In this document: in pieces, positions 1,217 to 58,882 of the stretch
How positions within the stretch are numbered: position 1 is the stretch's first letter
How the letters are laid out: every line of letters starts with the position of its first letter
Assembly: GCA_016188155.1 (NCBI GenBank)
Contig: JACPIH010000002.1
Span: 1-63,398, forward strand
Reading direction: 5' to 3'
DNA: 63,398 bases
Origin: Candidatus Woesearchaeota archaeon
GTDB lineage: Archaea; Nanobdellota; Nanobdellia; Woesearchaeales; UBA10216
Notes under the pieces: generated by a model
Seen by the model: only the letters and a program-made list of their open reading frames with translations
Database searches by the model: none
What the model was told of the DNA's origin: nothing
Made by a program: the position numbers and the translations under genes

Positions 1217-1518
1217 GTGCAAATCAGTTACGCCGATTGCACAGGTCGGCAGTGGCCGACCGTGCAATCCTGCCGATGCAGGATTTGCACACAGCATCGG
1301 CAACAGCCGATGCGTATAGGCGGCGTAACCGCCTATATTCCGCATAGCGGAATTGTGTCCAGTGGCTTCTGAAGGCGTTTTTGCGGCTTCTTGTGAATAA
1401 AATGCTGAAAAACTTGCGGCTGACGTTAAAAGAATTTCGGAATTTTAGTGGCACTGGTCACTGGACAATACCACGTAGGGTATTTAAGCCAGAAGGCTGC
1501 ATAAACCGGTTATGCAGC
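1217..1518. repeat. Intergenic array of perfect GC-rich hairpins (composite palindromic repeat element)
   Basis: Stems at 1235-1269 (15 bp, one bulge), 1294-1313 (8 bp), 1315-1337 (9 bp), 1337-1353 (7 bp) and 1496-1518 (9 bp). Long-range pairings 1217-1225/1282-1290 and 1356-1364/1459-1467. Confidence 0.85.
1354..1421. repeat. ~68-bp dispersed direct repeat, copy 1
   Basis: tgtgtccagtggcttctgaaggcgtttttg... aligns with 6799-6866 tgtgtcaagtggcttcttcaggcgtttttg... Confidence 0.75.
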
Positions 1519-2204: not shown

Positions 2205-3446
2205 ATGAGGGAGCTTTTGATAGTTGGGGTGGATCCTGGAACAACCGTAGGGTATGCTGCGCTTGACACCCACGGGAGAGTGCTGAAAACAAGGTCGTCA
2301 AAGCAGCTGGAGCTGAACAGCCTTCTTGAGGAAATTGTAAAGCTGGGAAGCATCCTTGCCATAGGAACAGACAAAGGAAAATGCCCATCGCTCATAGGGA
2401 AAGCCGCAGCAAAAACAGGAGCCAAGATAATTGTTCCAAAGGAAGACCTGCTCGTGGCTGAGAAAGACGCCCTCACAAAAGGCCGCATGTCAGGCAACGG
2501 GCACGAGAGGGATGCGCTGGCAGCAGCGCTTTACGCCTACAAGGAGCTTGAGCCGCTCCTGAACAGGATAGAAAAGGCCCTCGAAAGGGAAGGCAAGCAG
2601 GACATCTTCAGGGAAGTGACCGAAATAGTTGTGGCAACAGGAACAAACATAAAAGACGCAATAAGAGATGCTGATGGGAAAAGGAAAGAAGAGGCTGAGG
2701 TGCTTGAAAGGAGCTTAATAACCGCTGCGACTGCCGCAGCTGCCACTGACGCTTCTGAATTGAAAGAAAAAACATCACAGGAGAAAATGCAGGAAATGCT
2801 GCTGAAAAGGATGAAAAACGAAAACGAGATACTAAGGAACTACAACGACAAGCTGATAGCAAGGATAAAACTGGCAGGCAAAGAACTAAAAAAGGCAGCC
2901 AAAGCCAAGCTAAGGGAAAGCGCTGCAACTACTGATCTGAGAAAGCAGGAAATAGAAACACGGCACAGGCAGCTCCTTGCAAAGATGCAAGGCATCATAA
3001 ACCAGAAAAACACCAAGCTGGCAGGGCTCATGCACGAAAAAGAGCTTCTGGAAAGGATTCTGGCAGCAGAGGTTGTCGTGATAAAGAAGCTGGACACTTT
3101 AGGGTATGATGAGCTAAGACAGAAAAACAGCAGGCTTGGCCTGAAGGAAAATGACACAGTGCTTGTTGAAAACCCTGAAAGCTTCAGCCAGAAAACCCTT
3201 GAACAGCTGCAGCACAAAAACATCACAGTCATAGCAAGAAACAAGATAAACAGCACTGTTGCAAAAACGCTCCACGACTACGGGATTACAGCAGTTCCAG
3301 CTGCAGGGATACAGCTCATCGAATCAGAAAACTTTGCCGCCGCAGACAAAGAACAGCTTGAAAGGGCAAAAGAAAGACACGCTGACAAAAACATTGCCGG
3401 GCTGATAGAAAGCTACAGGGAAGAGAGGAAGATGCAATATGATTAG
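2205..3446 (+). CDS. DUF460 / COG2433-type protein (RNase H-like N-terminal domain plus coiled coil)
   Basis: LIVGVDPGTTVGYAALD N-terminus, HERDALAAA motif and a long K/E-rich coiled-coil region. Confidence 0.8.
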   Translation: MRELLIVGVDPGTTVGYAALDTHGRVLKTRSSKQLELNSLLEEIVKLGSILAIGTDKGKCPSLIGKAAAKTGAKIIVPKEDLLVAEKDALTKGRMSGNGHERDALAAALYAYKELEPLLNRIEKALEREGKQDIFREVTEIVVATGTNIKDAIRDADGKRKEEAEVLERSLITAATAAAATDASELKEKTSQEKMQEMLLKRMKNENEILRNYNDKLIARIKLAGKELKKAAKAKLRESAATTDLRKQEIETRHRQLLAKMQGIINQKNTKLAGLMHEKELLERILAAEVVVIKKLDTLGYDELRQKNSRLGLKENDTVLVENPESFSQKTLEQLQHKNITVIARNKINSTVAKTLHDYGITAVPAAGIQLIESENFAAADKEQLERAKERHADKNIAGLIESYREERKMQYD

Positions 3447-22741: not shown

Positions 22742-23149
22742 TCAGTCGCTGGCCCTGCAGACGGTGATGCGCTTGCCGTTGCCTGTCTTCCTTTCAACAA
22801 CCTGCAGGAAGGCAACCTCGTCACCTACCTTAGTCTTGCTCTTCCTTATTGTGCCGGCAGGGAGCTCTATTACGTACTTTGCCTTTTTCGTTGGGGAATA
22901 AGTGGAGAAGGGCTCCATGCTTTCAGTCATCTCTGCAATACGCAGCCGGCTGTCGACAAAGAGTACATCGATAGGGAAAAACACAAAGAAGGTATGAAGG
23001 CTGATAATCGCTTCTGATGAGAATTTAAGAATCATGGCAGACTGCGCAGGCTTTGAAAACATCAGTCCAATGGAGCGGCCGAGCACAGACTCAGCGGTCT
23101 TAGAGCGCAGGGCAATAATAGTGTTTCTGGTAACGTTCTTTACAGGCAT
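22742..23149 (-). CDS. DUF192 (COG1430) family protein
   Basis: IGLMF, HTFFVFFPIDVLFVD and YVIELPAG motifs. Confidence 0.88.
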   Translation of the reverse strand: MPVKNVTRNTIIALRSKTAESVLGRSIGLMFSKPAQSAMILKFSSEAIISLHTFFVFFPIDVLFVDSRLRIAEMTESMEPFSTYSPTKKAKYVIELPAGTIRKSKTKVGDEVAFLQVVERKTGNGKRITVCRASD

Positions 23150-23229
23150 AGAATATCAAGCAGGCGGATTAAACAGGTTGTTATTAAGCTTTTTTGTTTT
23201 TTTGAAAAGAACAAGTGGGGACGCTGGGA

Positions 23230-23375
23230 CTTTCACAGCCCTTTTGTTCGCTGATGCTCACAAAAGCCCAAGACGCCTTTGAGGGCGTCTGGGCACAGTC
23301 GTCAGCTGACGACTTGTGCGCTGGCGGAAAAACGTTTTCCGTCAACGCTTTTTTCGCGCACGAAAAAAGGGTTGG
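23230..23375 (-). other. 146-nt non-canonical tRNA intron in the T loop (59/60) with a strict bulge-helix-bulge
   Basis: Central helix U54U55C56A57/UGAA, 3-nt bulges AA|C and AG|U, and outer helix CA(A)CCC/GGG(C)UG. The interior consists of five hairpins. Confidence 0.88.
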
Positions 23376-23396
23376 TTTGAACCCAGATCCGAGGCT

Positions 23397-23453
23397 TTCT
23401 TCTTATGGGTAAGTCATCGCCTTCGGTTTGCCGTTGGCTCAGTTCTCCAATCA
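23397..23453 (-). ncRNA. 57-nt canonical-position tRNA-Trp intron carrying a box D / box C-like kink-turn and a C34 guide
   Basis: UGAUUGGAGAA-CUGA-GCC-AA-CGG-CAAA-CCG-AA-GGC-GAUGA. The fifth nucleotide upstream of CUGA (G at 23447) pairs with C34. Confidence 0.65.
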
Positions 23454-23517
23454 CTGGAGGCCCCCATAATGCCGGGTTATACTACGTCCCCTTGAGTTTT
23501 CCAGCGCCACCACAGCA

Positions 23518-23525
23518 TATTTAAA
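23518..23525 (-). promoter_or_regulatory. TATA box of the tRNA-Trp gene
   Basis: TTTAAATA on the minus strand, 26 nt upstream of tRNA position 1. Confidence 0.7.
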
Positions 23526-23574
23526 TGTTGCTGCAAAATATGGTTAGCATTGTGCAAAAGAGGCTTAAATAACC

Positions 23575-24723
23575 ATGAACAAAAGATTCTTTGAAGCAGT
23601 TGCTACGCTAACCGGCACGACAATAGGAGCCGGTGTTCTTGGCATACCTTACGTTGTGGCAAAATCCGGCCTGGCCATAGGGCTGCTGCACGTTATAATA
23701 ATAGGCGTAGCTGTTATGCTTGTTAATCTGATGCTTGGGGAAGTGGTGCTAAGGACAAAAGGTAACCACCAGCTAACAGGGTATGCGGAGAAGTACCTTG
23801 GAAAGGCAGGCAAGAGCGTAATGACCCTGTCCATGGTGGCGGGCATATATGGGGCATTAATCGCCTACATTATAGGCACAGGCATATCACTTAATGCTGC
23901 ACTGCCGCAGCTACCTCCCCTGTATGGAAGCATAATATTCTTTGCTATAGCAGCAGCCATTGTCTACATCGGGCTTAAGGCAGTTGAGAAATCAGAGCTG
24001 CTACTGGCGTTCTTTACGGTTATGTTAATCACTATTATAATAGTGGCTGCGCTGGCATCTGACAAGTTCTCAGCTGCAAACTTCACAAAAACAAGCATAC
24101 AAAATATGTTCCTGCCATACGGCGTTGTGCTGTTCGCATTTTTGGGAGCGGTTGCAGTGCCTGAGATGAAGGAAGAGCTAGGAAACGGCAAAGGCAGAAA
24201 GCTGCTGAAAAAGGCGATAATAATCGGAGGCATTGTGCCGATAGCGCTGTATGCGCTATTTGCTGTCGCCATTGTGGGAATAAGCGGCGTTTCAACAAGC
24301 CAGATAGCAACAACAGACCTGGGCAGTAGGCTTGGCGAGCTGATGGTAATAATGGCAAATGCCTTTGCGGTTCTGGCAATGAGCACATCATTCATAGCTC
24401 TTGGCCTGGCACTAAAAGAAATGTACCAGTACGACTACAAGCTCGGCAAAAAAACAGCGTGGGCACTCACATGCATAATTCCAATAACCGCATTCCTGCT
24501 TGGGGCCAAGGGATTCATAGCCGTGCTTGGAATAGCAGGGGCAATTGCTGGAGGAACAGAGGGAATCCTGCTTGTCAGAATGCACGCTGCCGCTGCAAAA
24601 AGGAAAAAAAGCGAACTCAAGCCGGAATACTCAATCAACGGCAAGCGGATTCTATCAATTGCACTCGCCCTGATGTTCCTGCTTGGAATAACATATGCTG
24701 TGCTAAAGCTTATTAGAGGCTAG
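23575..24723 (+). CDS. Aromatic amino acid (Trp/Tyr) permease family transporter
   Basis: LTGTTIGAGVLGIPY, LPYGVVLFAFLG..AVPE and STSFIALG motifs; about 11 TM segments. Confidence 0.85.
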   Translation: MNKRFFEAVATLTGTTIGAGVLGIPYVVAKSGLAIGLLHVIIIGVAVMLVNLMLGEVVLRTKGNHQLTGYAEKYLGKAGKSVMTLSMVAGIYGALIAYIIGTGISLNAALPQLPPLYGSIIFFAIAAAIVYIGLKAVEKSELLLAFFTVMLITIIIVAALASDKFSAANFTKTSIQNMFLPYGVVLFAFLGAVAVPEMKEELGNGKGRKLLKKAIIIGGIVPIALYALFAVAIVGISGVSTSQIATTDLGSRLGELMVIMANAFAVLAMSTSFIALGLALKEMYQYDYKLGKKTAWALTCIIPITAFLLGAKGFIAVLGIAGAIAGGTEGILLVRMHAAAAKRKKSELKPEYSINGKRILSIALALMFLLGITYAVLKLIRG

Positions 24724-24726
24724 GAT

Positions 24727-25893
24727 CTATTTCCTGCCTTTGCGCTCAAGCATGTAAAGGATTCCAATGACCACCAAGAGTACGAAGATTCCTATGAAGA
24801 TGTAAAGGCGGTAAACAAAAAGAAAATTACGCACAGATATAAGCAGGCCGAATATTGCAGGGCCAGCATTTGACGGCAGATTGGCTGCCGCTGCCCTGGA
24901 AGCTGCGGCAAAACCACCAAGGTTGGCAAGCTTGTTCCTGAAAACAAAAGCTGCAACACCGCCGCAAACAACAGCTACCGCCAGGGCAATGACTAACGAC
25001 TTCAGCTTGTTCCTCATAATTGCGGAAGGAAGCGAGAAAAGCCATACCACCCAGCCCTTAACCCACAAAACCACCTCGCCAAGCTGGCCTGTCCTGTGAG
25101 ACAAGAAAACAGTTGTTGCAAGGACAACAGCGAGAACAGCTGCCGCAACGGATTGCCACACATTATATGGCACTTTTCCTATGCTGGACTTAATATCCGC
25201 CACAGACCTGCCGATTGAGCTGCGAACATTTGCAAAGGCTTTGCCAAAATCAGCCGGCTCAGTTTTTTCAGCAGCCTTGACATGTGCAACTTTAGCGGTT
25301 TCATTCCTTGCAGCAAAGACTTTCCTAAAGAAAGCTGATATGTTAATTTTAGAAACATTAGCGACAGGAACCTTCTCACTGATATTTGCAGTTGTAATTG
25401 CCGAAACATTCCTCGTTTCATTGGCCGTTTCGTTAGCGCCTACGAAAATAGAAAATTCCTTGAGCGTAGACGTAAAAAAGGAGAGAGCAACGAGAGCCAG
25501 GACAACTACTGCAACAACTGCGACAGCTTTAATGCCAGCGCCACTTTTTGGCTTGTCAACAGGAACAGCAAGCTTTTTGCGTGGAACCACAACAGCTGCT
25601 GCAGCAGCAGCAAACTCCTTCTGCTTGAATACGCCTTCCCAGGGATAATGCCTTGGCTTTGGAATGAATTCGCGCTTCCTCGCCGAAGCCAGGGCAACTA
25701 CTGCAATCAAGACAAAAATCAAGGGAACAACAAGAAGGCCTGCAGCAGCAACAGCCGCAATGCTGCCATAATCAAGCTGCGGCAATGGCAGGATTTTGAA
25801 GTAAAACGCGAACGCCAGAACAGGGATGGTTACGAGGAACAGGAAAAGGGCGACAACCAGCCAAAGGACAAAAGCATCGTTATTTCTCATCAA
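24727..25893 (-). CDS. Hypothetical multi-pass membrane protein
   Basis: 388 aa with several hydrophobic segments and N-x-T/S sequons in a central loop. GGGGG SD-like motif and TATA upstream. No family recognised. Confidence 0.6.
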   Translation of the reverse strand: MMRNNDAFVLWLVVALFLFLVTIPVLAFAFYFKILPLPQLDYGSIAAVAAAGLLVVPLIFVLIAVVALASARKREFIPKPRHYPWEGVFKQKEFAAAAAAVVVPRKKLAVPVDKPKSGAGIKAVAVVAVVVLALVALSFFTSTLKEFSIFVGANETANETRNVSAITTANISEKVPVANVSKINISAFFRKVFAARNETAKVAHVKAAEKTEPADFGKAFANVRSSIGRSVADIKSSIGKVPYNVWQSVAAAVLAVVLATTVFLSHRTGQLGEVVLWVKGWVVWLFSLPSAIMRNKLKSLVIALAVAVVCGGVAAFVFRNKLANLGGFAAASRAAAANLPSNAGPAIFGLLISVRNFLFVYRLYIFIGIFVLLVVIGILYMLERKGRK

Positions 25894-25980
25894 ACCCCCT
25901 CTTAAAAATCAGTTACTACTTCAAAATAGGTTCTATTATTTAAAGGTTTTGGGGGCGAATTAAGGTTATGCATTAAAGAA

Positions 25981-26022
25981 GGAAAAAATGAAATAAAAAA
26001 AGAAGAAAAAAAGGAAAGTTTT
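25981..26022 (-). terminator. Oligo-T terminator after the S-layer-like gene
   Basis: Minus strand reads TTTCCTTTTTTTCTTCTTTTTTTATTTCATTTTTTCC immediately after the stop at 26025. Confidence 0.65.
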
Positions 26023-26024
26023 CC

Positions 26025-27317
26025 TCAGTAGTATGTCTGGGTTCCTTCCTCTCCCTGGCCTGGGCCCTTCATTCGCCTGAAAGCAACAACAACGCCCACG
26101 ACAACGAGCACAACTATCAGGGCAATAAGGCCAAGCTGCAACAGCTGCACGGTGCTGCCAAGATTCGAGGCGCCAGCGCCTGCCGCAACAACGTTAGCAG
26201 ACAACGGGAACTCCTTTACAACGTCGCCTGCCTGGTCCTTTACCCTTACGACCAAGACCTGTGCTCCAGCTGGCGAATTCTTATTGGCCGAAACCATAAG
26301 GTAAACTGTCTGGCTGTCGCCACCCTTTACAGCTACAACGTTGCCCTGGCTTAACCTGACAGTTGCCCAGTCCGAAGCGGCTACAGACAAGCTGAAGCTC
26401 TTGCTGGTTGTGCCGTCGTTTGTTATCGTTATCGGGTATGAAACGGCTACACCACCTGCTACAACATCCTGCTGCTCCGGGGCGTATATCTTAACGCCGT
26501 TTGCCGAAACAGATGTTGAAGTTGCTGGTGTTTCGCATGCTCCCTTTGTAACAGTTATCTGCCTTGTGGCAGTTACCGTCTTGTCACCTTCCTCGAAAGT
26601 AACCTCGGCCTTCACATCATAAGTGCCAGGCTTTGCGCACGACTTAATCCTCAGGAAAAACTCTTCAGACGTTGCAGACTCTTCCGCATCAAGCTCGTCA
26701 ATAAAGTCAGGGTTATCTGTAACGCCAAGCTCAGGAATGCTGACCCTTACCTTAACGTCATCTTCCTGGCTGTCGCCAAGGTTCTTGACCCTGACAGTTG
26801 CCAGAACAACACTTCCTGCCTTCACCGTATCCTCCGGGTTGACGCTGAGGTCCTTGATTACAACCTCGTGGTCAGATGGAGTAACCTTTATCCTGAAGTT
26901 CTTGATAACCTCGTCGTTGTCCCTGCCAGCCACTATAATCCTAAGCCTGTACTTGTCCTCGTCAGCCCTCTCAGGCAGCTTGAGCTTCAAGGTCTTGACG
27001 TAGCTGACGTTTGTCTCAACATTGAAAGGCCTTGTCTCATCGCTGATGTCTTCAGTCTTTGAGAACTCAAAGCCGCTAACGAATGCCCTTATTTCAACAT
27101 CATTAGCATCGGCAGACGCCTTTACCTTTATCTTGACATCGAAAGCCTCTCCCCTTTCCAAATCCCTGATGTTAAGCTCAGAAGCGCTTAGCTCAAAATT
27201 GTCAATATCGACAGCCTCAATGGAAACAGGCACAGCTGCCGCAAGGGCAGAACCTGCCATAAGAACTCCGAACAGAATAACAACCAATGGCAAAAACAAA
27301 CTCTTTGACATCTTCAT
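26025..27317 (-). CDS. Putative S-layer / CARDB-type Ig-fold surface protein with C-terminal TM
   Basis: Signal peptide, three beta-sandwich domains (VRVKNLGDSQEDDVKVRVSIPELG; ITITNDG), TM and basic tail. GGGGTGG SD, TTTATATA at 27397-27404 and a strong terminator. Confidence 0.7.
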   Translation of the reverse strand: MKMSKSLFLPLVVILFGVLMAGSALAAAVPVSIEAVDIDNFELSASELNIRDLERGEAFDVKIKVKASADANDVEIRAFVSGFEFSKTEDISDETRPFNVETNVSYVKTLKLKLPERADEDKYRLRIIVAGRDNDEVIKNFRIKVTPSDHEVVIKDLSVNPEDTVKAGSVVLATVRVKNLGDSQEDDVKVRVSIPELGVTDNPDFIDELDAEESATSEEFFLRIKSCAKPGTYDVKAEVTFEEGDKTVTATRQITVTKGACETPATSTSVSANGVKIYAPEQQDVVAGGVAVSYPITITNDGTTSKSFSLSVAASDWATVRLSQGNVVAVKGGDSQTVYLMVSANKNSPAGAQVLVVRVKDQAGDVVKEFPLSANVVAAGAGASNLGSTVQLLQLGLIALIVVLVVVGVVVAFRRMKGPGQGEEGTQTYY

Positions 27318-27513
27318 TTTATAACCACCCCAACACTTGTTGATTTAATAATCGCTATGCTTTATGCACCGTATTCCAATCGATAAAGGAAGCTCCTATA
27401 TAAACATTTCGATTTTTTAGCATACAAGAGTAGTTACTTTTATTACTTATTATATAGTAGTTATGAACTTTGGGCTGCAATTCGCGATACTGTGACGTCT
27501 ATGCTTAGTCGAA

Positions 27514-27909
27514 TCATTGCAGGATTAACGGCCTGTACTTTACCCTTCTGCCATCGTCGCTGTTGAAGACAACCTTCACGAAGGGGTCAAATACGTCAGG
27601 GAAGGAGAGCTCGAAATGGACTGACTTCTTGTTTGTTTTTGAAAAATCAACGTTGCGCCTTTCCCTAAGCCCGAGCTCAGGAATGGAAACAGTTACCTTC
27701 GAGTCAGCGTTATCAGCCTTCGACTCAAGGCTTACAATCACGAGGGCTTCGGAGTTCTTGACTGCCGAAACCTTGCTTATTTTGACGACTTTCTCAACTG
27801 CCGCAACATCTAGCGCGGCTGAAACGACAGCAACGAGAAGAACAACGGAAATGAAGAAAAGCCTTAACGATGCCATTTTTTGACCCCCAGCAACAGCTGT
27901 TAAAAACAC
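27514..27909 (-). CDS. Small secreted protein with a single IPELG-type Ig-like domain
   Basis: Signal peptide; VTVSIPELG motif shared with both neighbouring genes. Confidence 0.6.
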   Translation of the reverse strand: MFLTAVAGGQKMASLRLFFISVVLLVAVVSAALDVAAVEKVVKISKVSAVKNSEALVIVSLESKADNADSKVTVSIPELGLRERRNVDFSKTNKKSVHFELSFPDVFDPFVKVVFNSDDGRRVKYRPLILQ

Positions 27910-27967
27910 TGAAGGATGAGCTATTATTTAAAGTTTTTGCAAGTGACGCTACTTTAGAATAGAAACA

Positions 27968-28047
27968 TGACCTTTTTAAGAACCCAAGTCGCCTCCTGCG
28001 ACTGGGCCCAATCGACAGATGTCGATTTGGGAAAGGTCAATCAAAAA
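27968..28047. repeat. Palindromic element: TGACCTTT...AAAGGTCAATCAAAAA shell enclosing two GC-rich hairpins
   Basis: tgacctttt-taagaa-[cccaagtcgc ctcct gcgactggg][cccaatcgac agat gtcgatttggg]-aaaggtca-atcaaaaa. Confidence 0.85.
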
Positions 28048-28051
28048 CGAG

Positions 28052-31850: not shown

Positions 31851-31879
31851 CCTTCTCTCGGAAACGGTAATTATCGTCG

Positions 31880-31919
31880 TTTTTGGATTGAACCTTTTTT
31901 TGCAAAAAGGGTCAAATCC
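31880..31919. repeat. Diverged, inverted copy of the TGACCTTTTT..AAAAAGGTCAATCAAAAA element; probable terminator of the GGR gene
   Basis: Minus strand reads ggatttgacccttttt-gc-aaaaaaaggttcaatccaaaaa. The T-rich strand follows the GGR stop. Confidence 0.55.
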
Positions 31920-35946: not shown

Positions 35947-36327
35947 ATGGCACTAGGCATACAGGTATTCGGAATCGTGTTCGGGGCATTCATGCTTTAC
36001 ATGAGCTTCCTTCAGTGGAAGAAGAAAGAGTTCACGTTCAATGAGTGGGCGTTCTGGAGCCTATTTGCCTTGGCGTTTAGCGGAGTATCGCTTTTCCCAC
36101 AAATACTTGACCCTGTGATAACATTGCTGGAGCTAGGAAGGAAGCTTGACCTTTTCATCATCATTGGCTTCATGTTCCTGATAGCGTCCACATTCTACAC
36201 GTACAAGGTAGTAAGGAAAGTCCAGAAAGGGCTTGACGAGCTAGTAAGGCAGCTCGCATTGGAAAGGGCGCAGGAGCCTGACCTTTTTCCGAAAAAGGTC
36301 AATCAAAAAACTAAAAGAGAAAAATAA
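35947..36327 (+). CDS. DUF2304 family membrane protein
   Basis: Three TM segments, LFPQILD..LELGRKLD, and a C-terminal coiled ending ELVRQLAL. Typical position next to a DPM-synthase-like GT2. Confidence 0.8.
   Translation: MALGIQVFGIVFGAFMLYMSFLQWKKKEFTFNEWAFWSLFALAFSGVSLFPQILDPVITLLELGRKLDLFIIIGFMFLIASTFYTYKVVRKVQKGLDELVRQLALERAQEPDLFPKKVNQKTKREK
36279..36310. repeat. TGACCTTTTT-CCG-AAAAAGGTCAATCAAAAAA element embedded in the 3' end of the DUF2304 CDS
   Basis: Perfect 10-bp inverted repeat plus ATCAAAAAA tail; translated as DLFPKKVNQK. Confidence 0.8.
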
Positions 36328-48583: not shown

Positions 48584-49372
48584 TCACCTTTCCTTTTTCC
48601 TGCACACCATGATTATGTGGCTTCCTATGTTGGGAGAGTAATCGCCCAGCTTTATGGCAAGCGACCTAAGGAGAGGGATGTTGTACTGGACAGGGAACAT
48701 CAAGTTGGAACTCAGCTTTTTAATTACTGAGAAATTATGTTCCCGTAATTGCTGCTCAAGAGCCGGGAACGTGTAGTTCCTGATGTGGCCTGCATTGTCC
48801 TTTCCAAGCCGAACCTCGCTGCCTACAGGAAGCTTCCCAAACAAGAGCATGACCCTATTAGAGAGCGAAGCAAGGTTAGGGGTGGTTACGATAAAAATGC
48901 CATTTGGCTTCAACACCCTCCAGACTTCCCCGATAAAAAAATCGGTGTCATAAAGGTGTTCTATAATGTCGCCAGCGTAAGCAGCATCGAAAAGATTGTC
49001 ATGAAACGGGAATGCCTCCTCTGCGCTGCCAACAAATGCCCTAATCCCCTTCTTCCTTGCCTTCGCAACCTCAATCCTGCTTATTTCAAGACCAGCAACG
49101 TCGTAGCCAAGCGACTTCAGGCGCAGCGCAAAGGTTCCGTCCTGGCAGCCAACATCAAGCAGCTTAAGCGGCTTTTCAGCATCGGCAGCAGCCGATGCGT
49201 ATTGGCTATCAGCCAATATCCCGTGGTTAAGCTTCCTGAAGATACTGTAAGCCTTTTCGCGGTAAATGTACACGGGCCGGCGCACAGGCTTAAGATTATA
49301 ATCGCCCTCGTAATAATCCTTTACGCTGCGCCCCTTATGCTTTTTTATCGGTTTCATAAGCATTGACGTCAA
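48584..49372 (-). CDS. Class I SAM-dependent methyltransferase (type 11) with an in-frame hairpin-repeat insertion
   Basis: LLDVGCQDG, GDIIEHLYD, RVLKPNG and TTPN motifs. The start may be ATG 49363. Confidence 0.88.
   Translation of the reverse strand: MTSMLMKPIKKHKGRSVKDYYEGDYNLKPVRRPVYIYREKAYSIFRKLNHGILADSQYASAAADAEKPLKLLDVGCQDGTFALRLKSLGYDVAGLEISRIEVAKARKKGIRAFVGSAEEAFPFHDNLFDAAYAGDIIEHLYDTDFFIGEVWRVLKPNGIFIVTTPNLASLSNRVMLLFGKLPVGSEVRLGKDNAGHIRNYTFPALEQQLREHNFSVIKKLSSNLMFPVQYNIPLLRSLAIKLGDYSPNIGSHIIMVCRKKER
49178..49219. repeat. Two-hairpin repeat module inside the methyltransferase CDS
   Basis: 49177-49202 matches 1292-1317 at 25/26 nt. Adjacent hairpin tattggct-atc-agccaata. The segment encodes ILADSQYASAAADA. 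Confidence 0.8.
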
Positions 49373-57789: not shown

Positions 57790-57833
57790 AAAGGAAGAAA
57801 TACCTTGTGACCGGAGGAACAGGATTCATATGA
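57786..57833 (+). pseudogene. 15-codon abortive NAD-epimerase N-terminus (MKRKKYLVTGGTGFI*) terminated by a palindromic element
   Basis: ATGA-coupled to the upstream stop. Duplicates the KKYLITGGSGFI start of the next gene; the stop is the TGA of the repeat. Confidence 0.7.
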
Positions 57834-57863
57834 CCTTTTTAGAAAAAAGGTCAATCAAAAAAA
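57831..57863. repeat. TGACCTTTTT-AGA-AAAAAGGTCAATCAAAAAAA element
   Basis: Near-identical to 36279-36310. Confidence 0.85.
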
Positions 57864-58882
57864 TGAAGAAAAAAATGAAGAAGTACCTCATAACTGGCGG
57901 AAGTGGATTTATCGGGAGTGCCATAGTCAAAAAGCTTGTCTGGAATGGGCACAACGTAAGAGTGCTTGATAATAACCTAAGGGGCGCCTCTGAAAGGCTA
58001 AAGGAAGTGGCCGGAAAAATAGAGCTTGTGCAGGCAGACATACGCGATGCCGCAGCTGTCCAGAAAGCATGCAAGGGCGTTGACTCGGTAATACACCTTG
58101 CCTACCTTCAGGGAACACAGTTCTTCTACACAAAGCCAGAGCTTGTGCTCGACATAGGAGTAAAGGGCATGATAAATGTTATTGGCGGCTGCATCAAGGA
58201 AAACGTAAAGGAGATTGCAGTGGCATCAAGCTCGGAAGTCTACAACATGCCGCCAAAAATCCCAACAGATGAAACCGCTCCTCTTATGATTCCAGACCCG
58301 CTCAACCCCAGATACTCATACTCTGCCGGGAAAATAATAAGCGAGATTATGACGATAAACTACGGCAGAAAAAACTTTGACCGCGCATTGGTCTTCAGGC
58401 CGCACAACGTCTACGGCCCGGACATGGGATGGGAGCACGTAATACCGCAACTGGTTTTGAAAATAAGGAAAATCGCGGCTGCAACTGCGGAAAATAAAAT
58501 AAAAGTGCCTATCCAAGGCACAGGAAAAGAAACAAGGGCATTCATATTCATTGAGGATTTCGTAGACGGCCTGATGCTCGTGCTGGAAAAAGGCGAGCAC
58601 CTCGGAATCTACCATATTGGAACAATGGAGGAAATGCCTATAGCAGCTGTTGCGAAAGAGATAGGGAACTACTTCGGAAGGCAGGTTGAAATCGTGCCAG
58701 GAGAGGCTGCAAAAGGCTCGCCAGCAAGAAGGTGCCCGGACACAACAAAGCTCAAAAAGCTCGGGTTCAAGCCAAAAACGCCATTCAGGGAAGGGCTAAG
58801 GATAACTGCAAAATGGTACGGCCAAAACTCTGAAAAACAGCCAAAGATTTCCCAGAACAGAGGGAAGCTCTATGAGAAATAG
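57863..58882 (+). CDS. NAD-dependent epimerase/dehydratase (UDP-glucuronate decarboxylase-like SDR)
   Basis: ITGGSGFIG, ASSSEVY, YSAGK, RPHNVYGP and RRCPD motifs. In-frame starts at 57830, 57863 and 57875. Confidence 0.9.
   Translation: MKKKMKKYLITGGSGFIGSAIVKKLVWNGHNVRVLDNNLRGASERLKEVAGKIELVQADIRDAAAVQKACKGVDSVIHLAYLQGTQFFYTKPELVLDIGVKGMINVIGGCIKENVKEIAVASSSEVYNMPPKIPTDETAPLMIPDPLNPRYSYSAGKIISEIMTINYGRKNFDRALVFRPHNVYGPDMGWEHVIPQLVLKIRKIAAATAENKIKVPIQGTGKETRAFIFIEDFVDGLMLVLEKGEHLGIYHIGTMEEMPIAAVAKEIGNYFGRQVEIVPGEAAKGSPARRCPDTTKLKKLGFKPKTPFREGLRITAKWYGQNSEKQPKISQNRGKLYEK

Follow-up and report, generated by a model that had tools for sequence, protein, structure and literature searches.

A small repeat composed of two adjacent hairpins occurs in the genome of a Candidatus Woesearchaeota archaeon (assembly GCA_016188155.1), where one copy lies inside an intron of a tRNA-Trp gene and another in an intergenic spacer of the same 63,398-nucleotide stretch of contig JACPIH010000002.1 (hereafter the window). 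We named this double-hairpin repeat DH. Our analysis supports, with a probability of about 0.78, the interpretation that DH is a family of small mobile palindromes in DNA, non-autonomous and specific to one lineage, that inserts precisely and without target-site duplication, prefers the A-run of a second palindromic repeat, HR (of the form TGACCTTTTT-loop-AAAAAGGTCAATCAAAAAAC), and has become nested in the tRNA-Trp intron. DH is a real element, similar in kind to Rickettsia palindromic elements (RPEs) or to MITEs (miniature transposable elements with inverted repeats).

An earlier note, made from the letters of this DNA, had aligned two hairpin pairs and proposed a modular palindromic repeat family in a DPANN archaeon. 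The host assignment is correct, and the family is now represented by about 49 loci in the genome under study (G000), corresponding to 93 strand hits of a covariance model. We compared this genome with ten genomes of the same genus (congeners) and with more distant relatives; the genomes compared are metagenome-assembled genomes (MAGs) that are 67–92% complete.

Architecture, pairing and distribution of the element

DH is 46–53 nt long and has the skeleton CCCA-A-nTCG..loop..CGAn-TGGG in its first hairpin and CCCA-nTCG..loop..CGAn-T-TGGG in its second. Hairpin 1 carries a bulged A on its 5' arm and hairpin 2 a bulged T on its 3' arm, and because of these two bulges the skeleton is unchanged when the complete element is read as its reverse complement. 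The conserved ends, CCCAA...TTGGG, constitute terminal inverted repeats. The fixed bases are combined with variable inner stems that are always self-complementary; the inner stems of the two hairpins differ within one copy, and each hairpin folds on itself. A covariance model (R2) built from six copies in six other genomes, and hence independent of G000, was run on the window with filters off. It ranked copy B first and copy A second, followed by the segments 1240–1288, 1295–1337 and 49180–49223. The principal loci in the window are the following.

23267..23318: DH copy A, 52 nt, a double hairpin nested in the tRNA-Trp intron; R2 57.9 bits, E ~8e-11.
27983..28031: DH copy B, 49 nt, a canonical double hairpin with a perfect skeleton match; R2 66.9 bits, E ~1e-12.
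27968..28048: intergenic composite element made of the HR head TGACCTTTTTAAGAA, DH copy B and the HR tail AAAGGTCAATCAAAAAC.
1240..1338: intergenic cluster of four hairpins, in which 1240–1288 is a diverged DH (CACA-A..., CAATCC...) and 1294–1313 and 1315–1337 are further modules.

Both sequences aligned in the earlier note, copies A and B, are present at these positions, and 37 of the 49 ungapped columns of their alignment are identical. The four stem pairs described there as changed on both sides with Watson-Crick pairing kept (A-T>T-A, A-T>C-G, G-C>A-T and T-A>A-T) were found again, and a pair-by-pair check placed all other differences between the two copies in loops. Copy A has compensated variants at positions that are otherwise conserved, namely ACG/CGT in place of the family's TCG/CGA and CACA/TGTG in place of CCCA/TGGG, with zero non-canonical pairs in the alignment. 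The composite that holds copy B lies 3 nt downstream of the stop codon of a 481-aa open reading frame (ORF) on the minus strand. In the four-hairpin cluster, which contains perfect hairpins, R2 gave 30.3 bits (E 7.5e-5) for 1240–1288 and 22.3 bits for 1295–1337. The segment 1239–1265, for which 89% identical copies exist at C6:20392 and C40:5837, had been taken as a third copy of the second hairpin; it does belong to the family as a weaker, diverged member, but it is of the hairpin-1 type, with the bulged A on the 5' arm.

Two observations concern the surroundings of these loci. Within an ORF at 49177–49218 lie two perfect hairpins, GCATCGGCAGCAGCCGATGC and TATTGGCTATCAGCCAATA, which are near-copies of the intergenic hairpins at 1294–1337; R2 matched this region weakly (49180–49223, 15.9 bits). 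About 900 nt downstream of the hairpin cluster, positions 2205–3446 encode a DUF460 protein. We take DUF460 to be a predicted archaeal nuclease-like family that is presumably too widely conserved for a specific mobiliser of the repeat.

Pairing was examined across many copies, and the variable pairs did not form part of the search pattern; any two perfect palindromes of one family will nevertheless look 'compensatory' on comparison. Among 15 copies of G000, all 265 of 265 cells were paired, compared with 90% in shuffles (0 of 500 shuffles reached the observed value); eight pairs were altered on both sides, where 2.9 were expected, and a slid-partner control left only 23–50% of cells paired. 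Covariation, which the earlier note saw in a handful of hairpins, exceeds the shuffled and slid controls in this larger set. In 59 distinct metagenome copies, 99.7% of 1,047 cells were paired and 100 changes affected both sides versus 26.6 expected, in an alignment that was fitted to the model and in which both strands of every locus were counted.

The composition of the stems is informative about the level at which they are kept. All DH loci of G000 score on both strands, and minimum-energy folds of 49 loci, on both strands, contained 1281 G-C, 597 A-T and only 13 G-T pairs (0.7%), the last mostly closing loops. Likewise, G-U occupied 3 of 1,047 cells in the metagenome copies. Given the near absence of G-U and the strand symmetry, we read the constraint as one on DNA, or on the two strands alike; a structure selected only as RNA would normally tolerate G-U, so its rarity points to DNA. 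With regard to the earlier description of a structure-selected repeat family, these features point away from a selected RNA structure. Upkeep of the palindromic stems presumably takes place at the DNA level.

The perfect skeleton pattern matched 14 loci in the 1.075-Mb genome of G000. Each of the ten congeners carries DH (13–113 strand hits), and so do 5 of the family's 14 other genera and 29 public metagenome contigs, including contigs from Hainich groundwater; it was absent from all 16 genomes representing other families of the order. DH is accordingly a lineage-specific repeat, spread among groundwater archaea with ~1-Mb genomes. A genome-wide count of perfect hairpins in G000 gave 175 versus 96 in one shuffle, an excess that is uninformative for DH because its stems contain bulges.

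Insertion sites and mode of spread

Comparison with orthologous loci revealed several sites at which an element is present in one genome and missing from another. One of them is in the gene for D-aminoacyl-tRNA deacylase (DTD).

C13:24144–24191: exactly 48 extra nt in the DTD gene, in frame, in G000 only.

All 8 congeners in which the gene was found have the empty site, GGAA^AAGG, one of them with a protein that is 90% identical, and the filled site in G000 reads GGAA[48 nt]AAGG, with zero target duplication and 16 extra residues in the protein. The tRNA-Pro(CGG) intron of G000 matches that of congener G005 except for a DH of exactly 50 nt, inserted at AAAAA^GCTCA. A 72-nt in-frame HR and DH composite, adding 24 residues, is present in the PurL genes of G000 and G001 and absent from seven other orthologues; the inner stems and the reading frame of the insert differ between G000 and G001. 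In G002 and G007 the orthologous spacer lacks the whole 81-nt composite around copy B, and near-identical composites occur at other loci, at 94% identity in G000 itself (C12:22545–22626) and at 98% in G008. Such identity between composites at different loci indicates recent copying. In addition to PurL and DTD, DH copies are translated in frame in a DHH-family protein, Elp3, FtsY and a phospholipase-D-like protein, and Pfam confirmed host proteins.

The flanks of 50 non-redundant sites have A at position -2 in 44, a purine at -1 in 49 and a purine at +1 in 46. The target of DH is a purine run, RAAR^RR, entered without target-site duplication. Short flanking repeats of 2–4 nt were seen at 10 of 19 sites versus 4.7 expected, an excess that arises because insertion favours A/T (purine) runs. 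The enrichment of DH in tRNA genes relative to non-coding space was marginal (P = 0.047), for which reason we claim no tRNA targeting for DH itself.

The usual position of DH is the junction between the A-run of HR and GGTCA. The HR tail motif occurs 63 times in G000 versus ~1 in shuffles. 'Empty' copies of HR that lack DH number 21 in G000, three of which lie in the window and were found by pattern.

36277..36313, plus strand: empty HR, TGACCTTTTTCCGAAAAAGGTCAATCAAAAAAC.
57829..57866, plus strand: empty HR.
31877..31916, minus strand: empty HR, GGTTCAATCC variant.

The mobile units therefore form two nested families, DH and HR. Nesting can go further than this pair: in deeply nested composites of G000 (C14:8205–8345, C30:44554–44662 and C2:106–200), the loop of the second DH hairpin (CCCATTCGC...GCGAATTGGG) holds 2–4 more hairpins from related families (CGCA/TGCG and AATC/GATT types), and one inner arrangement, which ends in ...GCGCAGTCGGCTGC.GCCGACTTGCGCCATAGGCGA, recurs at two loci. 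It was also considered whether HR might, as a general rule, donate stop codons; this was rejected, as only 6 of 42 TGA ends close an ORF of at least 80 aa.

We propose that DH would insert precisely and without target-site duplication into purine runs, with the A-run of HR as its preferred landing site, and that copies would persist only where they do little harm, that is in spacers, in surface loops of proteins if in frame, and in tRNA introns. In tRNA-Trp, DH occupies an HR-type module of an intron, and splicing should remove it from the mature tRNA. Most plausibly, the stems remain palindromic because a single-stranded hairpin or a cruciform of the DNA is the substrate of an enzyme acting in trans, or because one arm templates the other.

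Several results weigh against this proposal. No transposition event was observed, and the differences in presence and absence may partly reflect precise deletions. The divergence of the PurL insert between G000 and G001 needs fast compensated change or exchange between copies. A search of viral contigs for the DH skeleton recovered no copies. Furthermore, the HUH/RAYT-type mobiliser for which the earlier note advised a search (RAYT, REP-associated tyrosine transposase; REP, repetitive extragenic palindrome) was not found: Y1_Tnp (PF01797) is absent from G000 and from 8 of 10 congeners, RVT_1 is absent from G000 and from 7 of 10 congeners, and IS110 is absent from the whole genus, with positive controls that worked in each case. 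The Y1, IS110 and reverse transcriptase searches thus yielded no parent insertion sequence, although other transposase families were not searched and, given the incompleteness of the MAGs, a gene may have been missed. Pairs of DH or HR copies flanking an autonomous element were also considered and rejected, as nearby pairs enclose ordinary genes, which resemble those for a signal peptidase and a TRAM-domain protein when their translations are read by eye.

The best surviving alternative is that DH has a function as folded RNA and is selected at that level, for instance as a signal for protein binding, stabilisation or processing; it would then recur because many transcripts need it, and would not be mobile DNA. 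The strong covariation and the very stable fold would suit such a role, as would the many copies situated just past stop codons, beside T-runs or in tRNA leaders and trailers, and there is a general precedent in the REP elements of bacteria, which have acquired roles of the RNA-signal type. We nevertheless consider this explanation unlikely. G-U pairs at 0.3–0.7% and a skeleton that is equally good on both strands are unusual for selection on RNA; copies are translated in frame within six protein genes; the insertions at orthologous sites are lineage-specific; and no family of Rfam 15 matched the window at the gathering threshold, with only chance-level matches in 23100–23600.

Still less probable, and in our judgement very improbable, is a REP/REPIN-type element moved by RAYT, an HUH Y1 transposase domesticated from IS200/IS605, as occurs in bacteria. 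DH does share with such elements the doublet of inverted palindromic units, the lack of target duplication and conserved bases at the feet of the hairpins. However, Y1_Tnp is missing from G000 as well as from the DH-rich congeners G001, G008 and G009, while the two congeners that carry it are not the richest in DH and one of them is DH-poor. The units of DH do not pair with each other, no GTAG-like 5' motif is present, and many copies lie within genes. Finally, a chance or convergent likeness between unrelated GC-rich hairpins of intron and spacer, which might have been suspected while the comparison involved two copies and aligned palindromes always look compensatory, is refuted by E-values of ~1e-10 to 1e-12 with the other-genome model and by a skeleton, including the positions of the bulged A and T, that is shared by dozens of loci.

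The tRNA-Trp gene, HR and the tRNA introns

Copy A lies in a tRNA gene that is interrupted twice.

23216..23491, minus strand: hidden tRNA-Trp(CCA) gene, with exons 23491–23454, 23396–23376 and 23229–23216.
23397..23453, minus strand: canonical 37/38 intron, 57 nt, box C/D-like.
23230..23375, minus strand: T-loop (59/60) intron, 146 nt, with five hairpin modules.
23241..23266: hairpin CTTTTGTTCGCTGATGCTCACAAAAG, which forms the core (T-run, inner hairpin and A-run) of an HR-type element.
23319–23347: hairpin CGCTGGCGGAAAAACGTTTTCCGTCAACG, present in the minimum-free-energy fold.
23348–23369: hairpin CTTTTTTCGCGCACGAAAAAAG, a perfect 9-bp hairpin, present in the minimum-free-energy fold; the intron of tRNA-Leu(GAG) has a related stretch, GCGTCAACGGAAAAACG.

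With 23453–23397 and 23375–23230 removed, the 73-nt remainder was called tRNA-Trp(CCA) by ARAGORN, in agreement with the earlier claim that the repeat sits within a tRNA. On the intact window, ARAGORN at default settings missed the gene, as did Rfam at both gathering and E-value thresholds. The bulge-helix-bulge (BHB) motif that had been proposed to bound the intron can be read at its ends. Next to the T stem (CTGGG/CCCAG), TTCA of the exon and TGAA of the intron pair in a 4-bp helix that lies between the 3-nt bulges AA^C and AG^T; an inner helix follows, CAACCC/GGGCTG, with one A-C mismatch. This motif was read directly from the sequence, and the minimum-free-energy fold did not return the local BHB structure. 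The fold of the pre-tRNA-Trp as a whole had z = -6.9 relative to shuffles and contained five intron hairpins, including both hairpins of DH. G000 encodes the splicing endonuclease EndA (PF01974, 95.7 bits, C28:42011–42271), and the endonuclease together with a ligase should remove the DH-bearing intron from the mature tRNA-Trp.

Within the intron, copy A follows directly after the A-run end (AAAAG^) of the CTTTTGTTCGCTGATGCTCACAAAAG module. Modules of this type also stand beside DH in the introns of tRNA-Leu(CAA) and tRNA-Pro(CGG) on contig C38. The content of the 59/60 position of tRNA-Trp varies among relatives as follows.

G001, G002, G007 and G032 (another family): no intron.
G004, G006, G008 and G003: unrelated intron of 31–42 nt.
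G005: 52-nt intron, an HR unit without DH.
G010: intron of ~110 nt with a different DH.
G000: intron of 146 nt.

None of the relatives compared carries an equally long 59/60 intron that is unrelated to the repeat. Since the nearest relatives lack a DH-less version of the G000 intron, this intron looks replaced rather than just extended. At its ends it is similar to the T-loop introns on C32 and C35, which would fit a transfer of introns between tRNA genes through homology of the T arm.

Two further observations relate to this gene. In the 37/38 intron, the sequence UUGGAG, which is complementary to CUCCA in the anticodon loop, stands 2 nt upstream of CUGA, and a GAUGA box follows; in the guide register read from the sequence, C34 is the fifth position upstream of CUGA, just as it is in the known archaeal guide. 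The intron is conserved at 83–97% across the genus, with a shorter version in G032, and looks like a candidate box C/D guide. According to a citation in PMC4090602, an archaeal tRNA-Trp intron acting as a box C/D guide has precedent. In the tRNA-Trp genes of six congeners (G006, G005, G008, G002, G001 and G007; L016, L017, L018 and L021–L023), the 5' acceptor strand that would be expected, GGGGAYG, is missing from the 40 nt upstream of the D arm. These six genes may have a further intron near the junction of acceptor and D arm, or may be split.

HR is common in and around the tRNA genes of G000. HR-type bodies were found in at least 12 canonical tRNA introns. Eight HR tails fall within tRNA spans, all of them in sense orientation, and another 13 are within 120 nt of a tRNA gene (21 of 63 in total). 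HR's TGACC end falls together with the 5' end of the intron in three settings: the tRNA-Pro(CGG) genes of G000 and of G005, the 59/60 intron on contig C34, and the G005 gene for tRNA-Trp. Other T-loop introns of G000 (C32, C35 and C34) have the same ends and modules. A census of T-loop introns with a generic regular expression was too noisy and was not used. The orthologues of tRNA-Pro(CGG) form the following series.

G003: no intron.
G004: intron made up of plain HR.
G005: HR that contains an inner hairpin.
G000 (gene C38:47035–47219): HR with an inner hairpin and 50 nt of DH.
G007: a different double hairpin at the same point.

Based on the HR-type introns, the sense orientation of the tails, the coincident 5' ends, the tRNA-Pro(CGG) series and the occurrence of HR in PurL, we tentatively suggest, at somewhat less than even odds, that new tRNA introns arise when HR inserts at a BHB-compatible position and then grow by nested palindromes. 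HR would insert at the DNA level, without target duplication, where a BHB can form; its complementary arms would supply the helix next to the BHB; and the intron would enlarge by nested insertion of further palindromes such as DH. Against this origin of introns, the change may have run in either direction (gain or loss), four congeners have HR-free introns at the 59/60 position of tRNA-Trp, and HR could simply accumulate in introns that already exist.

Other features of the tRNA genes were also observed. The tRNA-Pro(CGG) genes of G004 (C182) and G005 (C37) (L120 and L129) contain an extra D-loop insert of ~30 nt, ACAGCGTGAACTTGGGTTGCGCTGGAGCAA, which those of G000, G003 and G007 lack; it is a further putative polymorphic non-canonical intron. 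In G000, HR copies start 1–2 nt past the 3' end of tRNA-Gln (C13:33848) and tRNA-Arg (C25:5090), which places a T5–6 run directly behind the tRNA, and HR has T-runs on both strands. It may serve as, or have been co-opted as, a transcription terminator. ARAGORN with intron search listed 33 tRNA genes in G000, several with doubtful anticodons ('SeC', 'Stop' and Phe-aaa), and at least four tRNA genes with T-loop introns were missed or mis-called; the tRNA complement of these MAGs is for this reason under-annotated.

Significance and comparison with known systems

To our knowledge, there are good descriptions of small mobile palindromic repeats from bacteria (REP, RPE and MITEs) but hardly any from archaea, and none from DPANN archaea came up in our literature searches. 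DH combines unusual traits, being very small, inserted at purine runs free of duplications, perfectly Watson-Crick in stems of varying sequence, and present in copies that nest one within another. Its success in ~1-Mb genomes that lack the usual transposases suggests a mobilisation mechanism outside those known. Furthermore, DH and HR link mobile DNA to tRNA introns: most tRNA introns of G000 are built from these modules, and orthologues show the intron absent, plain and enlarged stepwise, and the arrival of archaeal tRNA introns becomes directly testable. If the suggested origin from HR is true, it would offer a concrete mechanism for the gain and the 'transposition' of archaeal tRNA introns. 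Annotation of DPANN genomes is also affected, because tRNA genes that hold these elements escape standard finders, and enzymes that hold them gain peptide segments.

In the Thermoproteales, transposed tRNA introns are thought to be gained at the DNA level by a mechanism given as unknown (Fujishima et al. 2010, as reported in PMC4090602). In contrast to those introns, the shared body described here, HR with or without DH, also occurs outside tRNA genes, in spacers and coding genes, and orthologous series show it present, absent and enlarged by nested insertions. A 2026 preprint on Asgard archaea found no route by which introns arrive (10.64898/2026.10.13.758758).

Among the mobile palindromes, DH resembles REP/REPIN and other IS200/IS605-derived palindromes in forming hairpin-based inverted doublets that insert beside a short motif without target-site duplication. 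It differs from them in that most genomes with DH have no Y1 or RAYT, its hairpins fold separately and copies within genes are common. Archaeal MITEs have been listed from Sulfolobus and Halobacterium (PMC10969869). With MITEs, DH shares small size, multiple non-autonomous copies, inverted ends and differences in presence and absence between relatives; it differs in that the target is not duplicated at either of the empty sites that could be defined exactly (DTD and tRNA-Pro). The usual examples, such as RPEs of roughly 150 bp, are also much larger than the ~50-nt DH. The earlier note also names the palindromic repeat elements of Methanocaldococcus jannaschii, archaeal repeats with coding potential that reportedly enter coding genes.

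The closest parallel is with RPEs, short dispersed palindromic repeats that have no known transposase and are found in frame, and translated, in unrelated housekeeping genes (PMC10969869). DH is likewise dispersed, multicopy and in frame in unrelated protein genes, where it is translated without a stop, and the analogy that the earlier note had drawn with RPEs holds for the in-frame insertions in PurL and DTD. RPEs reportedly occur in RNA genes as well. They are bacterial, ~100–150 bp long and encode a conserved peptide, whereas DH is archaeal, spans 46–53 nt and, within PurL, is translated in one frame in G000 and in another in G001; moreover, the inner stems of DH are self-complementary but variable, and the element nests in a second repeat and occupies tRNA introns. 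In the properties that define each of these groups, DH thus departs from RPEs in size and host, from REP/REPIN elements in RAYT and from MITEs in target-site duplication, and by its size and host it is best regarded as an analogue of the RPEs and not as one of their members.

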